From an uncultured Chloroflexia bacterium (GTDB lineage Bacteria > Chloroflexota > Dehalococcoidia > UBA2979), in the NCBI GenBank assembly GCA_963728205.1, contig CAVSIV010000006.1:830831-894830 (forward strand): a stretch of DNA of 64,000 bases. The letters run 5' to 3'. Positions 743-55,226 of the stretch are shown here, one piece after another; the stretch's first letter is position 1; every line of letters begins with the position of its first letter. The notes below the pieces were generated by a model. That model worked only from the letters and a program-made list of their open reading frames with translations. It was not told the DNA's origin and ran no database searches. Position numbers and translations under genes: made by a program.

Positions 743-873
743 CCACAGCGGCGTCAGACAGCCGCCACAGGCCGGCGCCCGCAAGGCGCCGCGGGTCGCG
801 GCCGCTCCCGTCGCCCATCTGTCGGTGCCCCTTCGGCTCCGCTCAGGGCAGGCTGAGTCTCACGCCGCTCTGG
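743..873. repeat. decayed copy of the double-hairpin palindromic (REPIN-like) element
   Basis: Left arm CCACAGCGGCGTCAGACAGCCGCC and right arm GGCTGAGTCTCACGCCGCTCTGG resemble the arms of the intact element at 2743-2913. Indels break the arm hairpins. Confidence 0.5.
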
Positions 874-2742: not shown

Positions 2743-2913
2743 CCAAAGCGGCGTCAGACATGACGCCGACGGACCCGGCGGCGCGAGCCGCCTGGCGGGC
2801 CGCGATGACGCCGAGCGTCGCCTTCGGGGGAGGCGCGGGATGGTCCCCGCACCCGGGTTGGCGGCGGCCGAAGCGCCGCCGACCTGTCGGCGTCATGTCT
2901 GACGCCGCTTTGG
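2743..2913. repeat. double-hairpin palindromic element, subfamily B (REPIN-like)
   Basis: Arm CCAAAGCGGCGTCAGACATGACGCCGACGG (2743-2772) and its reverse complement (ending 2913) flank a spacer of about 110 nt. Each arm contains the hairpin CGGCGTCA-GACA-TGACGCCG. Confidence 0.85.
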
Positions 2914-3297
2914 TCGCGGGGGTATCGCCCTACTTCACGAGCACGACGACGATGTCGCCGTGGTTCGGCTCCCGCAGGCTCGAGGGGAGGCGCGGGATGG
3001 TCCCCGCACCCGGGTTGGCGGCGGCCGAAGCGCCGCCGACCTGTCGGCGTCATGTCTGACGCCGCTTTGGTCGCGGGGGTATCGCCCTACTTCGCGAGCA
3101 CGACGACGATGTCGCCGTGGTTCAGCTCCCGCAGGCTCGAGGGGAGGCGCGGGATGGTCCCCGCACCCGGGTTGGCGGCGGCCGAAGCGCCGCCGACCTG
3201 TCGGCGTCATGTCTGACGCCGCTTTGGGCGCGGGGTATCGCCCTACTTCACGAGCACGACGACGATGTCGCCGTGGTTCAGCTCCCGCAGGCTCGAG
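2828..3297. repeat. tandem triplication of a 157-bp unit (half palindromic element plus gene 3' end)
   Basis: Units start at 2828, 2985 and 3142 (157/157/156 bp, a few substitutions). Each unit contains the distal spacer, the right arm of the element, a 13-nt gap, the stop codon and the last 18 codons (SSLRE[L/P]NHGDIVVVLVK) of CDS 3243-3947. Only the third copy is joined to the gene. Confidence 0.9.
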
Positions 3298-3947
3298 ACG
3301 AAGTCCGGCGCCCCGGCGACGTACTGCCGCACCATCCCGCCCGAGACCCGGAACACGAGCTGCACCTGCCGCGGGATCGTCGCGACCGCATCCGCGATCG
3401 GCGTCGCGTCCGCGCCGTCCCACGTGAGGAGGCCGTAGCCGGACCCCGGCGGGAGCGCGCCGGTGAAGCCGCCGACCGCCACGACGTCGGTCGCCGCGGT
3501 GAGGTTCACCTGCTGCGGGGTCGTGCTCCACGTCGCGACCTGCGTCGCGGCGAGCCCCGGGTCCACCGCGCCGTACATCAGCAGGAAGCGCACGTCGTCG
3601 CCCGGCGCCGGGCAGCCGGCGTGGGTCTCCGACGACGCCACCGAGAGCATGTAGAACCCGCTGCCGGCGCCGGTCTTCGTGACGTCCGCGGTGCCGCAGA
3701 CGGCGGGCTCATGCCCCGGCGCGGCCGGACCCAGCGCGCGCACCTTCGACGGCAGCGCGCCCGACTGATCCGCGTAGACGAAACCGAAGATCGTCGACGC
3801 GCCCCCATCGGCCCGCGCGCGTCCCGCCGTCGCCGGCAGGAGCGCGCCGGCGACGAGCACCGCGGTCATGATTACCAGGATCGCCAGCGCGCGCGGACTG
3901 CGCGCAGCGCTACCGAGCCGACCGGTCCCGGCTCTCGAATCCATCAC
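3243..3947 (-). CDS. secreted hypothetical protein with the shared C-terminal module
   Basis: 234 aa with a signal peptide (ALAILVIMTAVLVAGALLPATAGRARA). The C-terminus YVAGAPDFVSSLRELNHGDIVVVLVK is related to the IPGAPAFVNA...VLVVK module of neighbouring surface proteins. Confidence 0.75.
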   Translation of the reverse strand: MMDSRAGTGRLGSAARSPRALAILVIMTAVLVAGALLPATAGRARADGGASTIFGFVYADQSGALPSKVRALGPAAPGHEPAVCGTADVTKTGAGSGFYMLSVASSETHAGCPAPGDDVRFLLMYGAVDPGLAATQVATWSTTPQQVNLTAATDVVAVGGFTGALPPGSGYGLLTWDGADATPIADAVATIPRQVQLVFRVSGGMVRQYVAGAPDFVSSLRELNHGDIVVVLVK

Positions 3948-4062
3948 ACCCGACCCCCGTCCGCCCCGGCGCAGTCGCGCGCGGAACGAGAAGATTGCGG
4001 AACCGGCCCCGCCGGCTCCCTTCCGCGTTCGACCCGTGGTCGTGTCGAGCGGGGAAGGGAGT

Positions 4063-4130
4063 CCCCGTCCCCTCCGAGGAGAGGACGGGGGTCCCGTTCA
4101 CGAACGTGCGCCGCTCGCGAGGAGCGGCGC
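4063..4130 (-). terminator. two GC-rich hairpins downstream of CDS 4148-4660
   Basis: GCGCCGCTC-GCGAG-GAGCGGCGC (4108-4130) and CCCCGTCC-N12-GGACGGGG (4063-4090) follow the stop codon on the minus strand. There is no U tract. Confidence 0.5.
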
Positions 4131-9112: not shown

Positions 9113-9330
9113 CAGCAGCGGGCGGTACGCCCGCTGTGCGCCTGTGTGCGGCGGGCCGTGGCCCGCTGTGCGCCTGGCAGCGGGCGGGACGCCCGCTGTG
9201 CGCCTGTGTGCGGCGGGCCGTGGCCCGCTGTGCGCCTGGCAGCGGGCGGGACGCCCGCTGTGCGCCTGGGCAGCGGGCCTACCGCCCGCTGTGCGCCTGG
9301 CAGCGGGCGATACGCCCGCTGTGCGCCTGG
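9113..9330. repeat. tandem array of seven hairpin units between the sigma and anti-sigma genes
   Basis: Units of 29-33 bp. Each is a hairpin, either CAGCGGGCG-NNN-CGCCCGCTG or GCGGGCC-GT-GGCCCGC, followed by TGCGCCTGG. The first four units form two 62-bp higher-order repeats. There are no spacers. Confidence 0.9.
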
Positions 9331-9356
9331 GTCGCGGACGGACGTCCGCGGCGTTC

Positions 9357-12993: not shown

Positions 12994-13091
12994 CCACAGC
13001 GGCGGCAGACATGCCGCCGACAGAACGCGGACGCCAGTCTGCGCGGCCGGCGCCGGGGCGCCTGTCGGCGGCATGTCTGCCGCCGCTGTGG
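12994..13091. repeat. double-hairpin palindromic element, subfamily A (REPIN-like)
   Basis: Arm CCACAGCGGCGGCAGACATGCCGCCGACAG and its reverse complement flank a 38-nt near-palindromic spacer. It lies 8 nt after the vapC stop and about 105 nt after the convergent stop at 13196. Confidence 0.9.
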
Positions 13092-13195: not shown

Positions 13196-13999
13196 CTACT
13201 TGACGACCAGCACGATCGTGCCGGCGGGAACGGTCGAGGGATACGTCGCGTTGAACTCGGCGTTCACGAACGCCGGGGCGCCGGGGATCAGCACCTGGGC
13301 CTTGCCGTTGACGAAGACCGTCACCGAGATGCCCTGCGCCGCGAGCGTCGCGGACGCCATCTGCTGCACGGTGCCGCCCTGCCAGATCACGGGGTTGACG
13401 CCGACCGTGTCGATCGGGCGGTCGAACTTGCCGAGCAGGTTGACCGCAAGCGCGCTCAGGCTCGTGACGTCGGCGACGTCGTTCGTGCCGTTGGAGACCG
13501 TCGCGTCGCCGTCGAGCGAGATGCCGATCGTGCCGGAGGCGGTGTCGGCGGTGTCGGGCTGCACCTTGATGCCGGACAGCATGAGCGTGTCACCGGCGGC
13601 GGAGCCGGTGGTCACGTTCAGCACGATCTCGTGCTGCGTCGGGGTGACGGTGCCGGTGGCGGCGCCGCCGATCTGGAGCGTGCCGGTGCCGCCGACGGTG
13701 TAGGTGACCGGGGCGGAGGTGTCGAACGACCAGCCGGTCGGGGCCTCGATCTTGATGCCGTTGGCGGTGGTCATCTCGTTGCCGGTCGCCGTGATCGTGA
13801 TCGGCGTGAGCGCCGTGAAGGTGTTGGCGCCGGTCGCGGCGTTGGTCGTCGGCTGGATCACGGCGTCGGCGCGCGTGGTCACCGTCGGCGCCGCGGCCTG
13901 CGCGAGGCCGGGCGCGGCCGCGAGGAGCATGCCGGCCGAGGCCGCGAGTGCAGCGATGGCGGCGCCTCCGCGCCAGGTCCAGGTGCGCAGTCTGCTCAT
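13196..13999 (-). CDS. secreted surface protein with the shared C-terminal module
   Basis: 267 aa from ATG 13997-13999 (RBS GGAGAGGA). Signal peptide GGAAIAALAASAGMLLAAAPGLAQA. It ends GKFDRPIDTVGVNPVIWQGG ... VLIPGAPAFVNAEFNATYPSTVPAGTIVLVVK. Confidence 0.85.
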   Translation of the reverse strand: MSRLRTWTWRGGAAIAALAASAGMLLAAAPGLAQAAAPTVTTRADAVIQPTTNAATGANTFTALTPITITATGNEMTTANGIKIEAPTGWSFDTSAPVTYTVGGTGTLQIGGAATGTVTPTQHEIVLNVTTGSAAGDTLMLSGIKVQPDTADTASGTIGISLDGDATVSNGTNDVADVTSLSALAVNLLGKFDRPIDTVGVNPVIWQGGTVQQMASATLAAQGISVTVFVNGKAQVLIPGAPAFVNAEFNATYPSTVPAGTIVLVVK

Positions 14000-14127: not shown

Positions 14128-14224
14128 CCACAGCGGCGGCAGACATGCCGCCGACAGGGACGCGGCGCCAGCCGCGCGGACCGGCGTCCGCGTGCTGTCG
14201 GCGGCATGTCTGCCGCCGCTGTGG
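14128..14224. repeat. double-hairpin palindromic element, subfamily A
   Basis: Both 30-nt arms are intact. It lies 79 nt upstream of the transposase-like ORF. Confidence 0.9.
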
Positions 14225-14302
14225 TTCGCGCAGGTCACCTTGCGGGCGGTGGCCGTCAAGCCTGACGGCGACGGGAATGCGCTCGGCCGCCACCCTGTGC
14301 AC

Positions 14303-14857
14303 ATGGACCGGTACTGGCTGCTCACCTGGACGACGTATGGCACGTGGCTCCCCGGCGATCCCCGCGGCTCCACGCTGCGCGTCCCCGACGTGGACGGCGA
14401 CGGACGCTCGCGGACGTTCCTTCGGCTGAAGGGCGAGGGCGGCCGCGCCCGCGGGCTCGCCCGCAGCGCGGCGCGGCGGATGACGGGGCCGCCGGCGCGG
14501 CTCACGGCGGACGAGGCGCGGGTCGTCCTGGACGAGATCCGCTCGCAGGCGCGCTTCCGGCGATGGGCGCTGCCGGCATGCGCGGTGATGGCGAATCACG
14601 TCCACGCCGTCGTGGGACTCGGCCCGGATGAGGAGCCGTCGCGCGCGCTGCACGCGTTCAAGGCGTACGCGAGCCGCGCGCTGAACGACCGCCGCGGACG
14701 ACCGGCGGGAGGCACGTGGTGGACGCAGTCGGGATCCACGCAGCGGCTGCGATGGGAGGCGAACGGCGTCGCCGCCGTGCGCTACGTGCGCGAGCAGCCC
14801 TACCCGCTCGCGGTCTGGATCGCACCGGGCGTCGACCCAACCGGCGGCGGTGGCTGA
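14303..14857 (+). CDS. Y1 (HUH) tyrosine transposase-like protein, REP-associated (RAYT-like)
   Basis: 184 aa. MDRYWLLTWTTYGTWLPGDPRG, the HUH motif in VMANHVHAVVG, and the C-terminal Tyr motif AVRYVREQPYP. These are the layout of IS200/IS605-type TnpA and RAYT proteins. Confidence 0.75.
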   Translation: MDRYWLLTWTTYGTWLPGDPRGSTLRVPDVDGDGRSRTFLRLKGEGGRARGLARSAARRMTGPPARLTADEARVVLDEIRSQARFRRWALPACAVMANHVHAVVGLGPDEEPSRALHAFKAYASRALNDRRGRPAGGTWWTQSGSTQRLRWEANGVAAVRYVREQPYPLAVWIAPGVDPTGGGG

Positions 14858-14893
14858 CGGGGCGCCGGGCGGCGATCGCCGACACGCCGCCAC

Positions 14894-15010
14894 CCACAGT
14901 CGCCACCCACAGTCGCCAGCCACAGTCGGTACCCACAGTCGCCACCCACAGTCGCCACCCACAGTCGCCACCCACAGTCGCCAGCCACAGTCGCCACCCA
15001 CAGTCGCGAA
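14894..15010. repeat. 9 tandem copies of a 13-bp unit CCACAGTCGCCA(C/G) abutting a palindromic element
   Basis: CACAGT recurs every 13 nt from 14895 to 14999. The next period lands on the first bases (CCACAGCGGCGGC) of the element at 15011. A period of 13 is not compatible with coding. Confidence 0.9.
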
Positions 15011-15107
15011 CCACAGCGGCGGCAGATATGCCGCCGACAGCCCGCGGACGCCAGTCCGCGCGGCTAGCGCCGCGCATCTGTCGGCGGCATATCTGCCGCC
15101 GCTGTGG
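15011..15107. repeat. double-hairpin palindromic element, subfamily A, GATA-loop variant
   Basis: The arms read CCACAGCGGCGGCAGATATGCCGCCGACAG. Both carry the same C-to-T loop change, so the two arms remain complementary. Confidence 0.9.
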
Positions 15108-15214
15108 TTCGCGGTTGCCCCCGGCCCGCGCGGTGGTCCGCGGTGCCGGCCCGCGCGGTTGCCCCCGGGCCGCGCGGGGGTTCGCGGTTGCCCCCGGCCC
15201 GCGCGGTGGTCCGC
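15106..15214. repeat. imperfect direct repeats (about 35 bp, GTTCGCGGTTGCCCCCGGCCCGCGCGGTGGTCCGC)
   Basis: Two near-identical copies start at about 15106 and 15180, with a related fragment between them. They lie between the palindromic element and the CoA-transferase start. Confidence 0.6.
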
Positions 15215-15285
15215 AGCGCCGGCCGCGCGAACCCGCGTTACCCACCCGCGCGCTATCGTTCGCGCCGCAGCAGAGGGGGACGCGC

Positions 15286-17858: not shown

Positions 17859-17982
17859 CCTCGGCGGCGGCAGACATGCCGCCGACAGCGGCGGGGCGCC
17901 AGCCGGGCGGACCTGGCTTCCGCGGACCCTGTCGCGGACGGGCGTCCGCGTCCTGTCGGCGGCATGTCTGCCGCCGCTGAGG
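17859..17982. repeat. double-hairpin palindromic element, long-spacer variant
   Basis: Arms CCTCGGCGGCGGCAGACATGCCGCCGACAG and its complement flank a 64-nt spacer. It starts 11 nt after the CoA-transferase TAG stop. Confidence 0.85.
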
Positions 17983-18460: not shown

Positions 18461-18805
18461 TCAGCGCGTCGCCGGCCCCGATTGCGGACGGCCTTCGTGG
18501 GCGATCTCCTGCTCGAGCAGGTGCAGTCGCAGCGCGTCCCAGAGCGCGCGCAGGCTGGCCGCGTCGTGCTCGCCGCCGGGCGCCCCGGCGGCGTCGCGCA
18601 GGGCGGCGGCGTCCTTCGCGAGCAACCCCGCCGTGGCGGACGGATGCACAATCAGCGGTCCGCGCCACACGGTGATGCGGCGGCAGGCACTGCAGATCGA
18701 CCAGCGGACGTCGGGTAAGGGACGGTCGGTGGAGAGCCACCACTGCTCGCCGTGCGTGCCGCAGCGCGGACAGGCGAACCAGTCACGCCGGGTGGTGCGC
18801 TCCAC
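18461..18805 (-). CDS. small zinc-ribbon hypothetical protein
   Basis: 114 aa with CPRCG ... CSAC cysteine pairs. Codon bias is consistent with the local GC3 level. Confidence 0.55.
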   Translation of the reverse strand: MERTTRRDWFACPRCGTHGEQWWLSTDRPLPDVRWSICSACRRITVWRGPLIVHPSATAGLLAKDAAALRDAAGAPGGEHDAASLRALWDALRLHLLEQEIAHEGRPQSGPATR

Positions 18806-18835
18806 GCGCAGCTCCTTCCCGGCCTGGAGTGTTCG

Positions 18836-18883
18836 GGGGGCGGTCCGCCTGACGGCCGGGCGGGACCCTGGCGGACCGCCCCC
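18836..18883. other. perfect 14-bp inverted repeat in a divergent intergenic region
   Basis: GGGGGCGGTCCGCC (18836-18849), a 20-nt loop, then GGCGGACCGCCCCC (18870-18883). It lies between the divergent starts at 18805 and 19121. Confidence 0.8.
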
Positions 18884-19120
18884 TATAGCGAACAGACCGA
18901 CGGCGCTCGCCGTTCTTACACTCGGTCGCGGCGAACTTTCCGAGAGCTTGAAGATTTAGCAAGGTTTTCCCCGCGGAACGTGGCTTCTCGGTCGAAATCG
19001 GGGTTCTCCCGACGTTGGGGCGGGCGGATACCCGCTATTTTTCCGGGGACGGTCGGGCGACCTTCAGGGGCTGGCTTTGGGCGCGCATGGACTCGCGTGC
19101 CCGGAACGCACCGGGACAAG

Positions 19121-21760
<2,640 letters not shown>

Positions 21761-34787: not shown

Positions 34788-34990
34788 GCGTGGCCGGCTG
34801 CGGCGTGGCCGGCTGCGGCGTGGCCGGCTGCGGCGACCGGCTACCGCGACCGGCAGCGGCGGCCGGCAGCGGCGGCCGGCAGCGGCGGCCGGCAGCGGCG
34901 GCTGCAGCCGGACCTCGGCGGCGACCGGCTACCGCGACCGGCAGCGGGGGGCGGCACCGGCGGCTGCAGCCGGGACCTCGGCGGTCACGG
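34788..34990. repeat. compound short tandem repeats next to a palindromic element
   Basis: (GGCGTGGCCGGCTGC)x3, (GGCAGCGGCGGCC)x4, and a segment of about 85 bp (GGCGACCGGCTACCGCGACCGGCAGCGG ... GGCTGCAGCCGGACCTCGGCGG) present twice. Confidence 0.8.
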
Positions 34991-35000
34991 GCGGCCCCGG

Positions 35001-35058
35001 CCACAGCGGCGGCAGACATGCCGCCGACCTGTCGGCGGCATGTCTGCCGCCGCTGTGG
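35001..35058. repeat. minimal palindromic element: the two 28-nt arms joined by a 2-nt loop
   Basis: CCACAGCGGCGGCAGACATGCCGCCGAC-CT-GTCGGCGGCATGTCTGCCGCCGCTGTGG, a perfect 28-bp inverted repeat that lacks the usual spacer. Confidence 0.9.
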
Positions 35059-48932: not shown

Positions 48933-51794
48933 CCGCCGTTCTCGGTCGCGCCGCGGAGCCGGCGGCCGCGACAACGCCGTGGTCGTCGCGGCCGCTCGCG
49001 GTCGCGCGGCAACGCCCGCGCGCGATCCTGGCAGGCGCGTGCATCGTCCTCGGCCTCGGCGCGCTCCTGCTCTACGCCTGGGCGATGGCGTACGGATCGG
49101 ACGCGGGTGCGCCGACGTTCAACTCCCCGCGCGCGAACAGCAACTTCGTGATCGCGCAGCACGTCGCCGCCGGCGGCGGCTTCGGGGTCCCGCTGGCCCA
49201 CTACGGCGAGCTGCCCCCGGAGATCGCGCCCGCGCTCACCCCTCGCGACTCGGCTCGCCTCGGCGATCGCGTGGTGCCCAAGACGTTCCTCTCCGAGGTG
49301 GTGCTCCTCGCCGGCGCGCTGCGCGTCGGGGACTGGGCTGCGCTGCTGCTCACCCCGGTGCTCGGCGCCGCGGCGGTCGTCGGCGTCTGCGTGCTCGGCT
49401 GGTCCGTGGCCGGGCGACGCGGCGTAGGCGCCGCGATCGTCGGCGGCGGCTCGGCGGCGATCTTCGCGGTCTGGCCGGCGCAGTGGATCGTAGAGAGCCG
49501 CGCGTACGAGCCGGGCGACGCGCTCGCCCTGTGCGCGTTCGTCCTCGGCGTCGTCGCGCTGTGGCCGGTGCTCGCGGGCGAGCGCGTCTCGCCGCGGCGG
49601 GCGGCGGCGGTGGGGGCGCTGTTCGGGCTCTCGATCGCGACCCGCTATCCGAACCTGCTGATCACCGCCATCCCCCTGTTGCTCCTCCTCCTGTCGCCGG
49701 GCACCGCGAGACGGGCGATCGTCTTCGTGGCGGCGTTCGTGCCGCTCGCGGTGCTCGGCCTGCTCGTGCTGGCGGGCAACCTCGTCGTCTACGGATCGCC
49801 GCTGACCACCGGATACGCGCTGGCCGTCGACGAGCTCCGGCAGTCGGTTCCCATCGACTCGGCGGGGTTCTTCGGCTTCAACCTGCAGGCGTTCGGCCAG
49901 TACATGCACGCCTACCTGCTCAACCCGGTGCTGGGCGGCCCGCTCCTCGCCGGCGTCGCCGTGGCCCTGGTGCTGCTCGTGCGCCGGTGGCGCGAGCCCG
50001 ACGGCGAGGCCCTCTACGCCGCGATCGCCGTCTGGACGCTGCTGGTGCTGACCGTCGTATACGGCGGCCAGGAGGCACACGGCGTGGATGGGTTCGTCGT
50101 GAACAGCTCGTTCATGCGGTACCTGCTCCCGGCGGCGGCGCTGCTCATCCCGCCGGTCGTCCTCGCGGTCACCCGGATGGTGGCGGGCGCGCTGCGGTCG
50201 GGACGCGGGCGCGGGATGCTCGCCGCGACGGCGGCGCTCGCCCTGCTCGCGAGCGTCCTGGTGGGGAGCGTCGAGGTCGCGGTCGGCCAGGCGGGGGGCA
50301 TCCGGGACCGCCGCGGCGTGGTGAGCCGGCTCGAGCAGGCGCGAACCGAGAATCGTCGCCGCGACCGACGACCGCTCGCTCATCATCACCCGCACCTACG
50401 ACAAGGTGCTCTACCCGCAGCGCGCCGCGCTCGTCGCGACCGCGCTGATCCGCTCCGACACGGCCATCGAAAAGGGCGCCTCCGTCACGTGGAGGCTCGT
50501 CCCCGACGACGAGCAGCTCGCGCTGGACGCCCAGATGATCGACGCGCGGAAGTACCGGCTGTTCCTGCTCAACGACGGCATCGTCTCCGACGTCGACGCG
50601 CTCCAGTCCCGGCTCGCCGCCGAGGGCCTCGTGCTCGAGCGCGTCTCCAGCGCGCCGTCCGTCCACCTCTATGAGCTGCGGCCCGCGGCGCTCGCCGGAC
50701 CCGTCGCAACCGGGACGCTGCCGGGGGACGGCCGCTCTCTCGACACGTGGGAAGCGCCCGACGGCACGCGCGTCATGGTCGTCGGCCACGACGCATCGCC
50801 GCACCTGACCGTGGTTGCGCGCCGGGGAGCCCGGCTCGTCCACGAGGCCGACTACGGGCTGCCGGGCGTCGCGCGCGGCGTGCAGTCGTGGGTGGCCCCC
50901 GACGGCGGACGGCTGGTTGCCGTCGCGCACGTCGGCAGCCCCGACTTCACGCTGCTGCACTGGGACGGGACGGCCCTCTCGGAGGTCGCGGCGTTCAACC
51001 TGCCCGGCGACGGGCGTGCCGTGGAGACGTGGGAACAGGGGGGCGCCCGCCTGATCGCCGTGGGCCACTACCGCAGCCCGGGTCTCACGCTGCTGCGATG
51101 GGACGGCCACGCGCTGACGGCCGCCGGAAGCGCAGCGATGCCCGGCATCGTGATCGGCATCGACTCGTGGGACGCGCGGGACGGCACGCGCCGCCTCGCG
51201 GTCACGCACGACGGCGCCCCCTACCTCAGCCTGCTGAGCTGGGATGGGGCGGCCTTTACGCAGCAGCCGTCCGTCGATCCGCTGCCGGGACCGGGCCGCG
51301 GCGTGACGAGCTGGGCGGACGGCGACGCGCGCCTCGTCGCGGTCGGATCCATGGGCGACCCGGCGTTCACCCTGCTGCGATGGCGGGGCTCGCAGGCGAC
51401 GACCCTGGGGACGTTCGCGCTTCCCGGCACCGCGTGGGTGGTCCGCAGCTGGGCGGACGCCGGCGATCGTGTGATCGCCGTCGGCCACGACGGCAGCCCG
51501 CACCTCACGCTGCTGCGATGGGACGGCTCCCGGCTCAGCAGCGACGGCAGCTTCGCGCTGCCGGGCACCGCGCTGGGGATGCGGACCTGGACCGCGCCGG
51601 TGGGTCGGCTGATCGCCGTCGCGCACGAGCGGCCGCCCTACCTCACGCTGGTGCGCGCCGTCGGACCGAACGGGCCGGCCGCGCACGCGCAGTCGCCGAC
51701 CGGGTGCGCGCGCGACGGCCCCTGCGCCCCGATTCCGGCGACGCCGTCGCCGTCCGCATCGATCCAGACCCGCCCGCAGGAGGAGCCCCGATGA
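48929..51794 (+). pseudogene. ArnT/PMT-like GT-C membrane glycosyltransferase continuous with a 7-repeat beta-propeller domain, interrupted by a +1 frameshift near 50350
   Basis: ATG 48929 (ATGA overlap). The membrane part stays in frame to about 50350, after which that frame becomes Arg-rich nonsense up to 50674. The next frame (ORF 50406-51794) already encodes IVAATDDRSLIITRTYDK with no start codon upstream of its GTG. It then has seven repeats of about 45 aa (50718-51665), such as LPGDGRAVETWEQGGARLIAVGHYRSPGLTLLRWDG. Confidence 0.65.
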
Positions 51795-53173: not shown

Positions 53174-53271
53174 CCACAGCGGCGGCAAATATGCCGCCGA
53201 CCGGTGCGCGGCGTCGGCCGCGCGGGCAGGAAGCCCGCGTGCTGTCGGCGGCATGTCTGCCGCCGCCGTGG
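53174..53271. repeat. double-hairpin palindromic element, asymmetric (decaying) copy
   Basis: The left arm has an AATA loop and the right arm has the canonical GACA loop. It lies between an SDR stop (53276) and the aldolase start (53152), both on the same strand. Confidence 0.85.
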
Positions 53272-53275
53272 GCCG

Positions 53276-54049
53276 CTAGAACCCGCCGCCGTTCACGGTC
53301 AGCCGCTGGTTTGTCACGTAGCGCCCGCTGTCGCCGACGAAGTACAGCACCGCGTTCGCGATGTCCTCCGGCTGGCACACGTGTCCGAATGGCATGTTGG
53401 CGTCGAGCTCGCGCATGTCCTTGATGCCCCGCGTCGCGCGGGCCAGCCGGAAGCCCATGTCGCTCTCGACGAGCCCCGGCGCGACGACGTTCACGCGGAT
53501 GCCGTGCTTGCGCTCTTCCTTCGCCAGCGTGTAGGCCACCGCCTCCATGCCGGCCTTCCCCATGTTGTACGGCGCCCCGCGCGCCCCGAACGACTGCGCC
53601 GCGCCCGACGAGATCATCACGACGTCGCCGCGCTCCAGCTCGCGCATCTGCGGCACGAGCAGCTTCGACACGTAGAACGCGCCGTAGGTGTGCGTCGCGA
53701 TCACGCGCTCGAGCTCGGCCGGGTCGGTGTCGACCACGGAGTTGCCGCGCGACGCGATCCCCGCGTTGTTCACGAGGATGCCGACTGAGCCGAAGTCGGC
53801 GAGCACGCGCTGCGTCATCGCCTCGACCTGCGCGTAGTCGGAGACGTCCGCCTGGTAGACCTCGGCGCGACGGCCGAGCGCGCGCACCTGCTCCGCCGTC
53901 TCGTTTGCGGCGTCCGGCGTGCGCGTGTAGTTGATCGCGACGTCGGCGCCGGCGCGCGCCAGCGCGAGCGACGATGCCCCGGCCGATGCCGCGCCCGCCG
54001 CCGGTGACGAGGGCGTTGCGGCCGCTGAGAGGTCGATGGTGACGGCCAT
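53276..54049 (-). CDS. short-chain dehydrogenase/reductase paralogue with a frame-swapped cofactor-binding motif
   Basis: The 257-aa frame is open. NNAG and the YxxxK region (YNMGKAG) are intact. The N-terminus reads LSAAATPSSPAAGAASAGASSLALARAG, while another frame over 53969-54025 encodes LSGRNALVTGGGRGIGRGIV, which is nearly identical to the paralogue at 54052-54822. Confidence 0.75.
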   Translation of the reverse strand: MAVTIDLSAAATPSSPAAGAASAGASSLALARAGADVAINYTRTPDAANETAEQVRALGRRAEVYQADVSDYAQVEAMTQRVLADFGSVGILVNNAGIASRGNSVVDTDPAELERVIATHTYGAFYVSKLLVPQMRELERGDVVMISSGAAQSFGARGAPYNMGKAGMEAVAYTLAKEERKHGIRVNVVAPGLVESDMGFRLARATRGIKDMRELDANMPFGHVCQPEDIANAVLYFVGDSGRYVTNQRLTVNGGGF

Positions 54050-54051
54050 CG

Positions 54052-54822
54052 CTAGAACCCTCCGCCGCTGACGGTGATGCGCTGGTTGGTGATGTAGCGG
54101 GCCTCGTCGCTCGCCAGGAAGACGACGGCGTTCGCGATGTCGGCAGGCTGGCAGAGGAAGCCGAACGGCTGGCTCGCCTCGAGCTCGTGGATGTCCTGCA
54201 CGCCGCGCGTGAACTTCACGAGCGCCTCGCCCATGTCGGTCTCGACGAGCCCCGGCGCCACGACGTTGACGTGGATGCCGTGCTGCCGCTCCTCCTTCGC
54301 CAGCGTGTACGCCAGCGCCTCCATCGCCGACTTGGCGGCGCTGTACGTGCCGCCCGTCGGCCCGAAGCTCTGCGCGCCCACCGACGAGATCATCACGACG
54401 TCGCCGCGGGGCCGCTCGCGCATCTGCGGGACGAGGAGCTGGCACATGTGGAACGACCCGATGGCGTGGGTCTCCATCAGCCAGCGGAAGTCCTCGGGCT
54501 TCGTGTCGGCGATGAACGGCCGGCCGATGGCGGTCGCGCCGACGCCCGCGTTGTTCACGAGGATGTCGACGTAGCCGAACTCGTCGAGCGCGCGCTGCGT
54601 CATTGCCTCGCACTGCGCGCGGTCGGCGACGTCGCCCTGCACGGCGAGCGCGCGGCGGCCGAGGCCGCGCACGGCGGCCGCCACCTCGTCGGCGGCGGCG
54701 GAGTTCTTCGCGTAGTTGATGGCGACGTCGGCGCCGGCTTCGGCGAGCTTGAGGCAGATGCCGCGGCCGATGCCGCGCCCGCCGCCGGTCACGAACGCGA
54801 CGCGCCCCTCCAGGCTGGGCAT
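54052..54822 (-). CDS. short-chain dehydrogenase/reductase (SDR)
   Basis: 256 aa. VAFVTGGGRGIGRGI, LVNNAG and YSAAKSA are present, and it has the same C-terminus (ITVSGGGF) as its neighbour. Confidence 0.92.
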   Translation of the reverse strand: MPSLEGRVAFVTGGGRGIGRGICLKLAEAGADVAINYAKNSAAADEVAAAVRGLGRRALAVQGDVADRAQCEAMTQRALDEFGYVDILVNNAGVGATAIGRPFIADTKPEDFRWLMETHAIGSFHMCQLLVPQMRERPRGDVVMISSVGAQSFGPTGGTYSAAKSAMEALAYTLAKEERQHGIHVNVVAPGLVETDMGEALVKFTRGVQDIHELEASQPFGFLCQPADIANAVVFLASDEARYITNQRITVSGGGF

Positions 54823-54947
54823 GTGCTGTCGTCCCTCCCCGTGGGATGACCGGCGGTGCCGGCCCGCTTCCCGGCGCGGAGTCTAGGGGCGCGCCCGGGG
54901 GCCGTCGAACGGATGCGGAACGGGACCGGGTGAACGCCGGATGGCGG

Positions 54948-55137
54948 GCGACGCCGGCGCCGGACGGCTGGCGCGCCGGCGCTGGACGGCAGACGCGCCG
55001 GCGCCGGACGGTGGGCGATGCCAGCGCCGGACCGCTGGCGACGCCAGCGCCGGACGGCTGGCGCGCCGGCGCCGGACGACGGGCGATGCCAGCGCCGGAC
55101 CGCTGGCGACGCCAGCGCCGGACGGCCGGCGCGCCGA
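54948..55137. repeat. tandem repeats of about 21 bp (GCGMYGCCRGCGCCGGACSGSTGG) with a 63-bp higher order, abutting a palindromic element
   Basis: About 9 units read directly from the sequence. They run into the left arm of the element at 55138. Confidence 0.8.
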
Positions 55138-55226
55138 CCGCGGCGGCAGACATGCCGCCGACAGGTGCGCGCCAGCCGCGCGGCTGGCGCCGCAATCTGT
55201 CGGCGGCATGTCTGCCGCCGCTGTGG
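55138..55226. repeat. double-hairpin palindromic element (left end truncated by 3 nt)
   Basis: CCGCGGCGGCAGACATGCCGCCGACAG ... CTGTCGGCGGCATGTCTGCCGCCGCTGTGG. It lies 18 nt after the Crp-family stop codon on the minus strand. Confidence 0.85.

Follow-up and report, generated by a model that had tools for sequence, protein, structure and literature searches.

A Y1 transposase gene bracketed by inverted hairpin doublets

The window analysed here is a 64,000-nt stretch (73% G+C) of contig CAVSIV010000006.1 from an uncultured Chloroflexia bacterium (Chloroflexota; Dehalococcoidia). It contains a gene for a predicted HUH (His-hydrophobic-His)/Y1 single-strand DNA endonuclease/ligase, and this gene is bracketed by two inverted copies of a doublet made of repetitive extragenic palindrome (REP)-like hairpins. 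Further copies are dispersed, so that the window holds nine repeat loci and one gene (Table 1). The open reading frame (ORF), its motifs, the bracketing 97-nt elements and their two inverted 30-nt arms had been pointed out from the letters and the translations only (hereafter the sequence-only reading), and all of them are recovered by the translation and by the arm search.

Table 1 Positions of the transposase gene, the repeat loci and two tandem arrays in the window
Feature	Position	Strand	Evidence
HUH/Y1 single-strand DNA endonuclease/ligase gene (predicted, class 3 TnpA_Y1), 184 aa	14303..14857	+	Pfam, homologue alignment, AlphaFold2 (AF2), Foldseek
Upstream 97-nt REP doublet (REPIN-like), two inverted 30-nt arms, 37-nt spacer	14128..14224		Arm search, folding, doublet alignment
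Downstream 97-nt REP doublet, inverted relative to the upstream doublet, GATA/TATC loops in both arms	15011..15107		
13-nt tandem array, TCGCnAnCCACAG, ~10 copies	14888..15016	+	Tandem Repeats Finder (TRF) score 216, 91% matches
19/25/44-nt tandem array, GGTTCGCGGTTGCC..., begins at the right flank of the downstream doublet	15110..15229	+	
Dispersed full doublet, both arms identical to the consensus, 104 nt past the stop codon (13196) of minus-strand gene 13196-13990	12994..13091		
Dispersed doublet, 64-nt spacer, 11 nt past the stop codon (17848) of the second CoA-transferase gene	17859..17982		
Spacerless doublet, 58-nt perfect hairpin, 13-nt tandem array (34792-35013) ahead of it	35001..35058		
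Decaying doublet, arm mismatches 3 and 1, 5 nt past a stop codon (53276)	53174..53271		
Doublet 18 nt past the stop codon (55244) of the Crp-like gene, 23-nt hairpin array (54935-55136) ahead of it	55135..55226		
Variant arms (at 2743, 2884, 3041 and 3198) with compensatory stem change CGGCGTCA/TGACGCCG, 16 nt past a stop codon (3243)	2743..3227		
Degenerate doublet remnant, CCACAGCGGCGTCAGACAGCCGCC ... CTGTCGGTGCC	743..830		

The 30-nt arm, CCACAGCGGCGGCAGACATGCCGCCGACAG, is laid out as CCACAG-CGGCGGCA-GACA-TGCCGCCG-ACAG. It folds into an 8-bp stem with a 4-nt loop (-11.9 kcal/mol, z -5.9), as had been proposed. The window contains 17 matches to the arm at up to three mismatches, compared with 0.00 expected from 100 dinucleotide-preserving shuffles. 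Among the 75 perfect 8-bp hairpins of the window, the stem of the arm is by far the commonest (14 + 4), and eight of the 14 canonical arms match the consensus exactly.

When seven doublets are aligned, the arms are near-invariant and the 37-nt spacer is variable. The spacer forms an inner, imperfect palindrome that contains two small hairpins, CGCGGAC-GCCA-GTCCGCG and GCGGC-TGGC-GCCGC; copy 53174 retains the first of them through a compensatory two-sided change (CGCGGGC/GCCCGCG). Spacer lengths of the seven doublets range from 0 to 64 nt, and the doublets fold into long hairpins of -42 to -67 kcal/mol, with z near -11. Pairs of inverted REPs that stand a short spacer apart, can form a single long hairpin and are repeated have been termed REP doublets forming hairpins, or REPINs (Bertels & Rainey 2011), and the doublets of the window have each of these properties.

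The upstream and downstream doublets are inverted copies of one another in which the spacer is inverted too (92% complementary across 103 nt); they present a same-strand hairpin at both gene ends. Both arms of copy 15011 carry one and the same loop variant (GATA/TATC), the only hint that the doublet is a replicating unit mobilised by a REP-associated tyrosine transposase (RAYT). Neither a target-site duplication nor a conserved flank is seen at the doublets, except for AA/CC ahead of CCACAG.

The majority of the copies lie 5–105 nt downstream of a stop codon. For the full copies, the measured distances (5–104 nt) agree with the limit of about 110 nt given in the sequence-only reading. That reading had also listed seven further copies in the window: those at 12994, 17859, 35001 and 53174 are as described, 2743 is a single variant arm and 743 a remnant, and the copy placed at 55138 starts at 55135. 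The variant region consists of the single arm (2743-2772) and three doublet variants (2864-2913, 3021-3070 and 3178-3227; arms 2884, 3041 and 3198) that lie inside a 157-bp triplication.

The protein is placed between IS200 transposases and RAYTs

ORF 14303-14857 shows a coding pattern of codon-position G+C (0.74/0.62/0.90). The encoded protein has an N-terminal block, YWLLTWTTYGTWLPGDPRG, followed by the motifs ANHVHAVV, TWWTQ and AVRYVREQP. The HUH motif is H99-V-H101, and the Tyr motif comprises Y161 and Q165. In an alignment of 30 sequences, residues N98, H99, H101, W140, T141, Y161 and Q165 are invariant, as are W5, T8, Y12, G13, G18, D19, R21 and G22 of the N-terminal block. The window protein and most of the aligned sequences share the Y-x3-Q spacing (YVREQ). 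A word-indexed search returned 537 homologues, many of which carry the Joint Genome Institute (JGI) label 'REP element-mobilizing transposase RayT'.

A public gene call for the same protein (P0001, 221 aa) starts within the upstream doublet (MLSAACLPPLWF…, region 14193-14302). The homologue alignment places the start at ATG 14303, which is therefore used here. The gene call of a relative (P0099) extends into tandem REPs, giving a spurious repetitive C-terminus.

The window protein passes the Pfam Y1_Tnp profile (26.1 bits, cut-off 23), and falls below the cut-offs of both NCBIfam REP_Tyr_transpos (38.6 bits, cut-off 80) and NCBIfam transpos_IS200 (24.3 bits, cut-off 55). In a profile search of the Protein Data Bank (PDB) sequences, it matches TnpA of the IS200/IS605 family (2f4f at 3e-6, then 2ec2, 2fyx, 2xm3 and 2a6m), and TnpAREP (4er8) is not reached. 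Designed SAKe proteins at the top of this search were discarded as spurious repeat matches to the stretch 'NHvHvvvGvpGdp'. The AF2 model has a pLDDT (predicted local distance difference test) of 90.9. Its best match in Foldseek is 4er8, E. coli TnpAREP with a bound REP hairpin (root-mean-square deviation 2.8 Å, 162 columns); the next 29 are all TnpA of IS608, ISDra2 or IS200 (including 2xm3 and 2vih), and nothing else is close. The Y1/HUH identity proposed earlier thus stands, and the profile scores, the PDB search and the structural matches together place the predicted enzyme between the IS200 and RAYT families.

Related genes are bracketed by hairpins of one grammar

An alignment-based scan of species-representative genomes yielded at least 348 confirmed relatives. 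The best 80 of these come nearly all from metagenome-assembled genomes (MAGs) of Planctomycetota, with single records from Dehalococcoidia, Competibacter, Alcaligenaceae and Kuenenia. In an exhaustive profile search (E <= 1e-30), the family forms 197 clusters at 50% identity. To detect bracketing, we compared, in 72 related loci, the 600 nt ahead of the gene with the 600 nt behind it and took the best inverted repeat. The gene is bracketed by inverted hairpin copies in about 50 of the 72.

We aligned 47 arms, oriented and anchored on the loop (43 from genome_contigs loci and L003, the window arm in two variants, L002 and L006). The arms have a common grammar, consisting of an nnAG foot, an 8-bp stem with C first and G last, and a GNNA loop (GTCA in 21 arms, GTAA in 9, GTTA in 4 and GTGA in 3). 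The window arm and 43 relatives have in common the stem-adjacent AG, the C:G pair at the start of the stem and the GNNA loop. In this orientation the window arm reads ACAG-CGGCGGCA-GACA-TGCCGCCG-ACAG, and aligns with CGAG-CGGCGGGC-GTCA-GCCCGCCG of two relatives (L041 and L060). The opposite orientation, which sets the 3' CTGTGG tail against the TGTTG tails of Planctomycete arms, was dropped; the GNNA strand is preferred because the AG foot, the C:G first pair and the loop also match. Covariation in the stems is strong: 94.2% of the cells are paired, compared with 63.9% after shuffling and 37–49% with the partners slid, the paired percentage being inflated by the anchoring on the best hairpin per arm. 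Two-sided changes number 88 cells versus 22.

The closest relatives, L001 (68% identity) and L002 (61%), lie on contigs of 72–74% G+C, each bracketed by one inverted pair of sister hairpins. The hairpin of L001 is CCACAG-CGGCGG..CCGCCG-AC, and that of L002 is GCAAG-CGGCGGCA-GGTA-TGCCGCCG-AC. A Dehalococcoidia MAG (L006, 52%) has GCAAG-CCTCGGCT-GACA-AGCCGGGG. These three hairpins indicate a protein sub-clade with a CA(C/A)AG foot, not CGAG. In this sub-clade the insert that follows the N-terminal block is shorter, and the type of hairpin changes along with the sub-clade of the protein.

Six MAGs carry two family members, which are 41–65% identical and have differing hairpins. A further family member, P0014, is 57% identical to the window protein and nearer P0003, which has a hairpin with the foot GCAAG and the loop GGTA.

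The window protein fits class 3 of the Y1 transposases

TnpA_Y1 proteins have been split into three classes (Quentin, Siguier, Chandler & Fichant 2018; PMC6006769). Class 1 is IS200, and class 2 is RAYT/TnpAREP, recognised by the motif Y---NP and by REPs with a GT[AG]G foot. Class 3 comprised 14–24 sequences from Planctomycetes, Acidobacteria and Proteobacteria, of ~178 aa, with NHVH, W[TA], a Tyr motif Y----Q (YV[VI][AENY]EQ) and a 155-aa core extended N-terminally. Class 3 genes are flanked by 'atypical' hairpins with a CnGA foot that are also dispersed in the genome (hairpin type GAGCCGnnAnCGTnAG), and their paralogues average 1.2 copies and 60.7% identity, compared with ~99% for IS200 copies. 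According to the same authors, class 3 went undetected in Bertels et al. 2017 (PMC6006769).

Judged by its sequence, the window protein fits class 3, being linked indirectly to the published members (such as ADG69454.1 and ABJ83664.1) through homologues with the published hairpin type: GAGCCGnnAnCGTnAG flanks homologues in L034, L040 and L081 that are 40–45% identical to the window protein. In common with class 3, the window protein has the NHVH HUH motif, a W-T motif, a Tyr..Gln motif, a similar length (184 aa) and a long conserved N-terminal block. The REPtron-like arrangement of a gene flanked by dispersed hairpins and the low-copy, diverged paralogues are also alike. The host, a member of Chloroflexota, is different. 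The foot is CACAG (GCAAG in relatives) instead of CnGAG; C-A-C-A-G and C-n-G-A-G differ at one position. The stem is a perfect 8-bp G+C helix where the published stem is weak and interrupted, GACA takes the place of GTNA in the loop, and the repeats are regular inverted doublets with a nested inner hairpin pair. The sub-clade of the window protein has a shorter N-terminal insert, and its Tyr motif is Y-x3-Q instead of Y-x4-Q. The homologue of L040 has the Y-x4-Q spacing (YVLHKQ), indicating that both spacings occur within one homologous family. The sequence-only reading had regarded the sequence family as unrecognised, but the family and this kind of hairpin have been known since 2018, mainly from Planctomycetes. 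What is new is the host phylum, a distinct and unusually clean hairpin, and the regularity of the REPIN-like doublets.

The system also resembles the classical RAYTs (TnpAREP of E. coli, 4ER8, and the Pseudomonas REPINs). A single-copy HUH/Y1 gene, counted within the window, is bracketed by inverted REPs, doublets are scattered between genes, for the most part behind gene ends, every paralogue is paired with a REP type of its own, the fold match is the best one, and the presumed way of working is the same. In contrast, the Tyr motif is YVREQP, with Q in place of the N of Y---NP, the foot is CCACAG (CTGT on the other strand) with no GT[AG]G, the protein is below the REP_Tyr_transpos cut-off, and 4er8 is unreached by the sequence profile. 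The REPIN/RAYT assignment of the sequence-only reading consequently holds for the architecture (bracketed gene, dispersed doublets, relatives alike) and fails for membership in the classical RAYTs.

TnpA of the IS200/IS605 family (IS608, ISDra2 and IS200) shares with the window protein the HUH/Y1 fold, the Y-x3-Q spacing and the use of DNA hairpins, and includes the closest solved relatives by sequence. The window system differs in having no multiple identical copies (in 64 kb), no tnpB and no asymmetric left and right ends. Its protein has a 60-residue N-terminal extension and is below the transpos_IS200 cut-off.

A further resemblance is to the CGTC-tagged REPs, which have been reported without a dedicated transposase and in which TGTC is a common variant of the tag (Di Nocera et al. 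2013; PMC3733652). On the strand opposite GACA, the window arm reads (C)TGTC-stem-loop-stem, and L001 has CGTC. The 8-bp stem, the 4-nt loop and the predominance of head-to-head dimers are alike. However, CGTC REPs have A/T first stem pairs and a CCA tail (PMC3733652), neither of which is present in the window arm. Membership was therefore rejected, and the resemblance is kept as a lead only.

Tandem arrays adjoin the doublets

Of the six strongest intergenic tandem arrays in the window, five are in contact with a doublet (14888-15016, 34792-35013, 15110-15229, 54935-55136 and 2827-3297). Array 14888-15016 amplifies the doublet's own 13 nt 5' of the stem (the outer 13 nt, …CCACAG), and each of its units ends with ACAG. 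The 13-nt array 34792-35013, directly 5' of doublet 35001, has the junction of the doublet foot and stem (CAGCGGCGG) as its unit. Nine tandem 22/23-nt hairpin units, CGCCAGCG-CCGGAC-CGCTGGCG, at 54935-55136 adjoin doublet 55135, and the two together form a mosaic like the bacterial interspersed mosaic elements (BIMEs). At 2827-3297, a 157-bp unit made of the last ~55 nt of minus-strand gene 3243-4097 (stop included) and a variant doublet is present three times; the units are 98% identical, indicating that the triplication is recent. Either slippage during replication across stable hairpins or an aberrant cut-and-rejoin reaction could have produced the doublet-adjoining arrays.

Several relatives, Planctomycete and other, likewise have their own hairpins at the flanks of the gene, arranged as tandem arrays or as inverted doublets (L037 2869-2995, L045 2841-2904, L003 9768-9968 and L065 2840-2942). 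A BIME/REPIN-like organisation is therefore common in class 3.

Another array of the window, at 9115-9337, consists of about seven hairpins, CAGCGGGCG-GNA-CGCCCGCTG, each followed by TGCGCCTG, with a 31/62-nt period. Its foot (CAG) and tail (CTGTG) are similar to those of the REP arm. It may represent a second REP family, perhaps cognate to P0014.

A domesticated system or an insertion sequence

We consider that the locus is probably a REPtron-like unit, that is, a low-copy, chromosomal class 3 HUH/Y1 gene flanked by an inverted cognate repeat that is also dispersed as doublets. A RAYT-like way of life is favoured by the copy number, the divergence of the paralogues, the missing tnpB, the missing plasmid and phage copies, and the strands of the flanking hairpins. 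One class 3 gene copy is present in the window, and tnpB is not adjacent to it, the neighbours being CoA-transferase and secreted-protein genes. Among 72,556 plasmids and 50,697 phage records, no family member is found; the sole match is a distant IS200/IS605 tnpA. In L001 and L002, the flanking hairpins show the GNNA-loop strand on opposite strands. Because excision is single-stranded, hairpins on opposite strands are not usable as IS200-type left and right ends.

The locus could instead be an ordinary autonomous insertion sequence (IS) of the IS200/IS605 type, with the flanking hairpins as left and right ends and the dispersed doublets as deletion derivatives like miniature inverted-repeat transposable elements (MITEs). 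The window protein is indeed nearer in sequence to IS200 TnpA than to RAYT, as the PDB profile search misses 4er8, its Y-x3-Q spacing is that of class 1, and the doublets give a same-strand hairpin at both gene ends. We nevertheless regard an IS as unlikely, in view of a single gene copy among nine repeat loci in 64 kb, paralogues that are far from the ~99% identity of IS200 copies within a genome, the lack of tnpB nearby and of plasmid or phage copies, and the single, opposite-strand hairpins of the closest relatives, which misfit the single-strand excision of a gene together with its ends. Another explanation takes the doublets as host regulatory or structural elements (3'-end stabilisers, terminators or protein-binding sites) that spread by recombination or slippage, the Y1 gene being uninvolved. 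The position of most copies 5–105 nt after stop codons is in accordance with this explanation, and the contact of five of the six strongest intergenic arrays with a doublet suggests that slippage-type processes act there. It does not account for ~50 independent loci across phyla in which members of this gene family stand between hairpins of one grammar, each lineage with its own version, nor for hairpins that change with the protein sub-clade. Chance neighbourhood is insufficient to explain these two observations, and an uninvolved gene is accordingly quite improbable; a regulatory role of the repeats is compatible with their mobilisation by the enzyme. Least credible, and very improbable in our judgement, is a relic, with a gene that has decayed or lost its activity and doublets that are immobile fossils. 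Copy 53174 and remnant 743 are decaying, and the exact arm is absent from the related Chloroflexota loci L085-L091; both observations speak for a relic. On the other hand, the frame is intact, all catalytic residues are kept, the codon-position G+C is of the coding type, eight of 14 canonical arms equal the consensus, and the arm-bearing 157-bp triplication is recent.

Several points weigh against the REPtron-like reading. The copy counts of the gene and of the repeat cover the 64-kb window, and MAG assemblies tend to collapse identical repeats, so that IS-like identical copies are possibly under-counted. The flanks in the window are symmetric doublets, and their geometry alone is compatible with an IS-like unit here. 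The inflated pairing percentage of the stem alignment belongs to the same list. Class 3 enzymes are described without any activity data (PMC6006769). The exact arm has no match in 185,579 species-representative genomes. In JGI metagenomes it has 24 matches, all of them single arms with other loops and no CCACAG foot, and these are therefore attributed to chance. Taken together, the searches indicate that the repeat family is lineage-restricted, as REP families usually are.

Proposed mechanism

The structures of IS608 TnpA and E. coli TnpAREP (2vjv and 4er8) are the established basis of analogy for the mechanism. By this analogy, the arm would fold into the 8-bp G+C stem with its GNNA loop (GACA) while the DNA is transiently single-stranded, the replication fork being the likeliest place. 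The enzyme would bind the folded hairpin and read the unpaired AG foot (ACAG in the window). The cut would be made beside the foot; Tyr161 would enter a 5'-phosphotyrosyl link, and the metal would be held by His99 and His101. When the DNA is rejoined, hairpins, or perhaps whole doublets moving as a unit, would be excised, copied or inserted elsewhere. Our guess is that the cut site might lie 3' of ACAG, which flanks the hairpin on both sides and ends each unit of array 14888-15016.

GNNA and GNA loops are closed by a sheared G.A pair, which makes unusually stable DNA hairpins. Such a loop would define the active strand, and each doublet would then offer one active hairpin per strand. The host might also benefit from the system.

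Genomic surroundings

The neighbouring genes are chromosomal metabolic and regulatory genes, including two genes for CoA-transferase III, an acyl-CoA dehydrogenase gene, genes for sigma-70 factors, an ATP-binding cassette (ABC) solute-binding protein, a class II aldolase and a Crp-like regulator, and a secreted-protein gene. The best named relatives of the acyl-CoA dehydrogenase (76–90% identity) are in MAGs of Chloroflexota/Dehalococcoidia. The seven Chloroflexota loci mentioned above (L085-L091), reached through relatives of this enzyme (82–90% identity), lack the arm, and the neighbourhood is not conserved. A conserved locus shared by the window and L001 was also considered through the downstream CoA-transferase gene, and was dismissed because the two are only 40% identical, which is too weak.

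Segments 53274-53968 and 54050-54753 form a tandem duplication of ~700–776 nt with 73–76% identity. The second copy corresponds to an intact gene (54052-54882); the first failed the coding filter and may be a decaying paralogue, and doublet 53174 lies 5 nt past its stop. ORF 50325-51794 has six to seven internal repeats of ~138–141 nt (50740-51664), and the recurring peptide '…SP.LTLLRWDG' suggests a repeat-domain protein. Hexanucleotide repeats (CAACGG x9 and CGCCAA x7, 21482-21589) are present in ORF 18719-21760, which has a sigma-70-like N-terminal part. Rfam and tRNA scans of the window returned nothing.

Significance

More broadly, class 3 could be a third independent lineage of repeat-mobilising domesticated transposases, spread over several phyla and using one DNA grammar. 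We offer this picture tentatively, and on balance doubt it in its full extent. The Chloroflexota sub-clade would be a natural specificity swap, in which the foot changed from CGAG to CA(C/A)AG along with a shortened N-terminal beta-hairpin region. The 13-nt arrays with units ending in ACAG could be footprints of repeated cleavage and rejoining that reveal the cut site. The TGTC/CGTC-tagged hairpins may possibly link class 3 enzymes to the 'orphan' CGTC REP superfamily.

The window system does not overturn current views of REP/RAYT biology. Class 3 Y1 enzymes have been described once and never studied experimentally. The class is much larger than reported (197 clusters and at least 348 loci), and reaches Chloroflexota. 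Its hairpins follow a simple shared grammar, within which stems and foot vary in step with the protein. The window hairpin is a very clean substrate: its 8-bp stem is perfect, its loop is GACA, and ACAG stands as the foot on either side. Together with two sister systems that have an altered foot and loop, it makes a convenient set for examining how a Y1 enzyme reads a hairpin.

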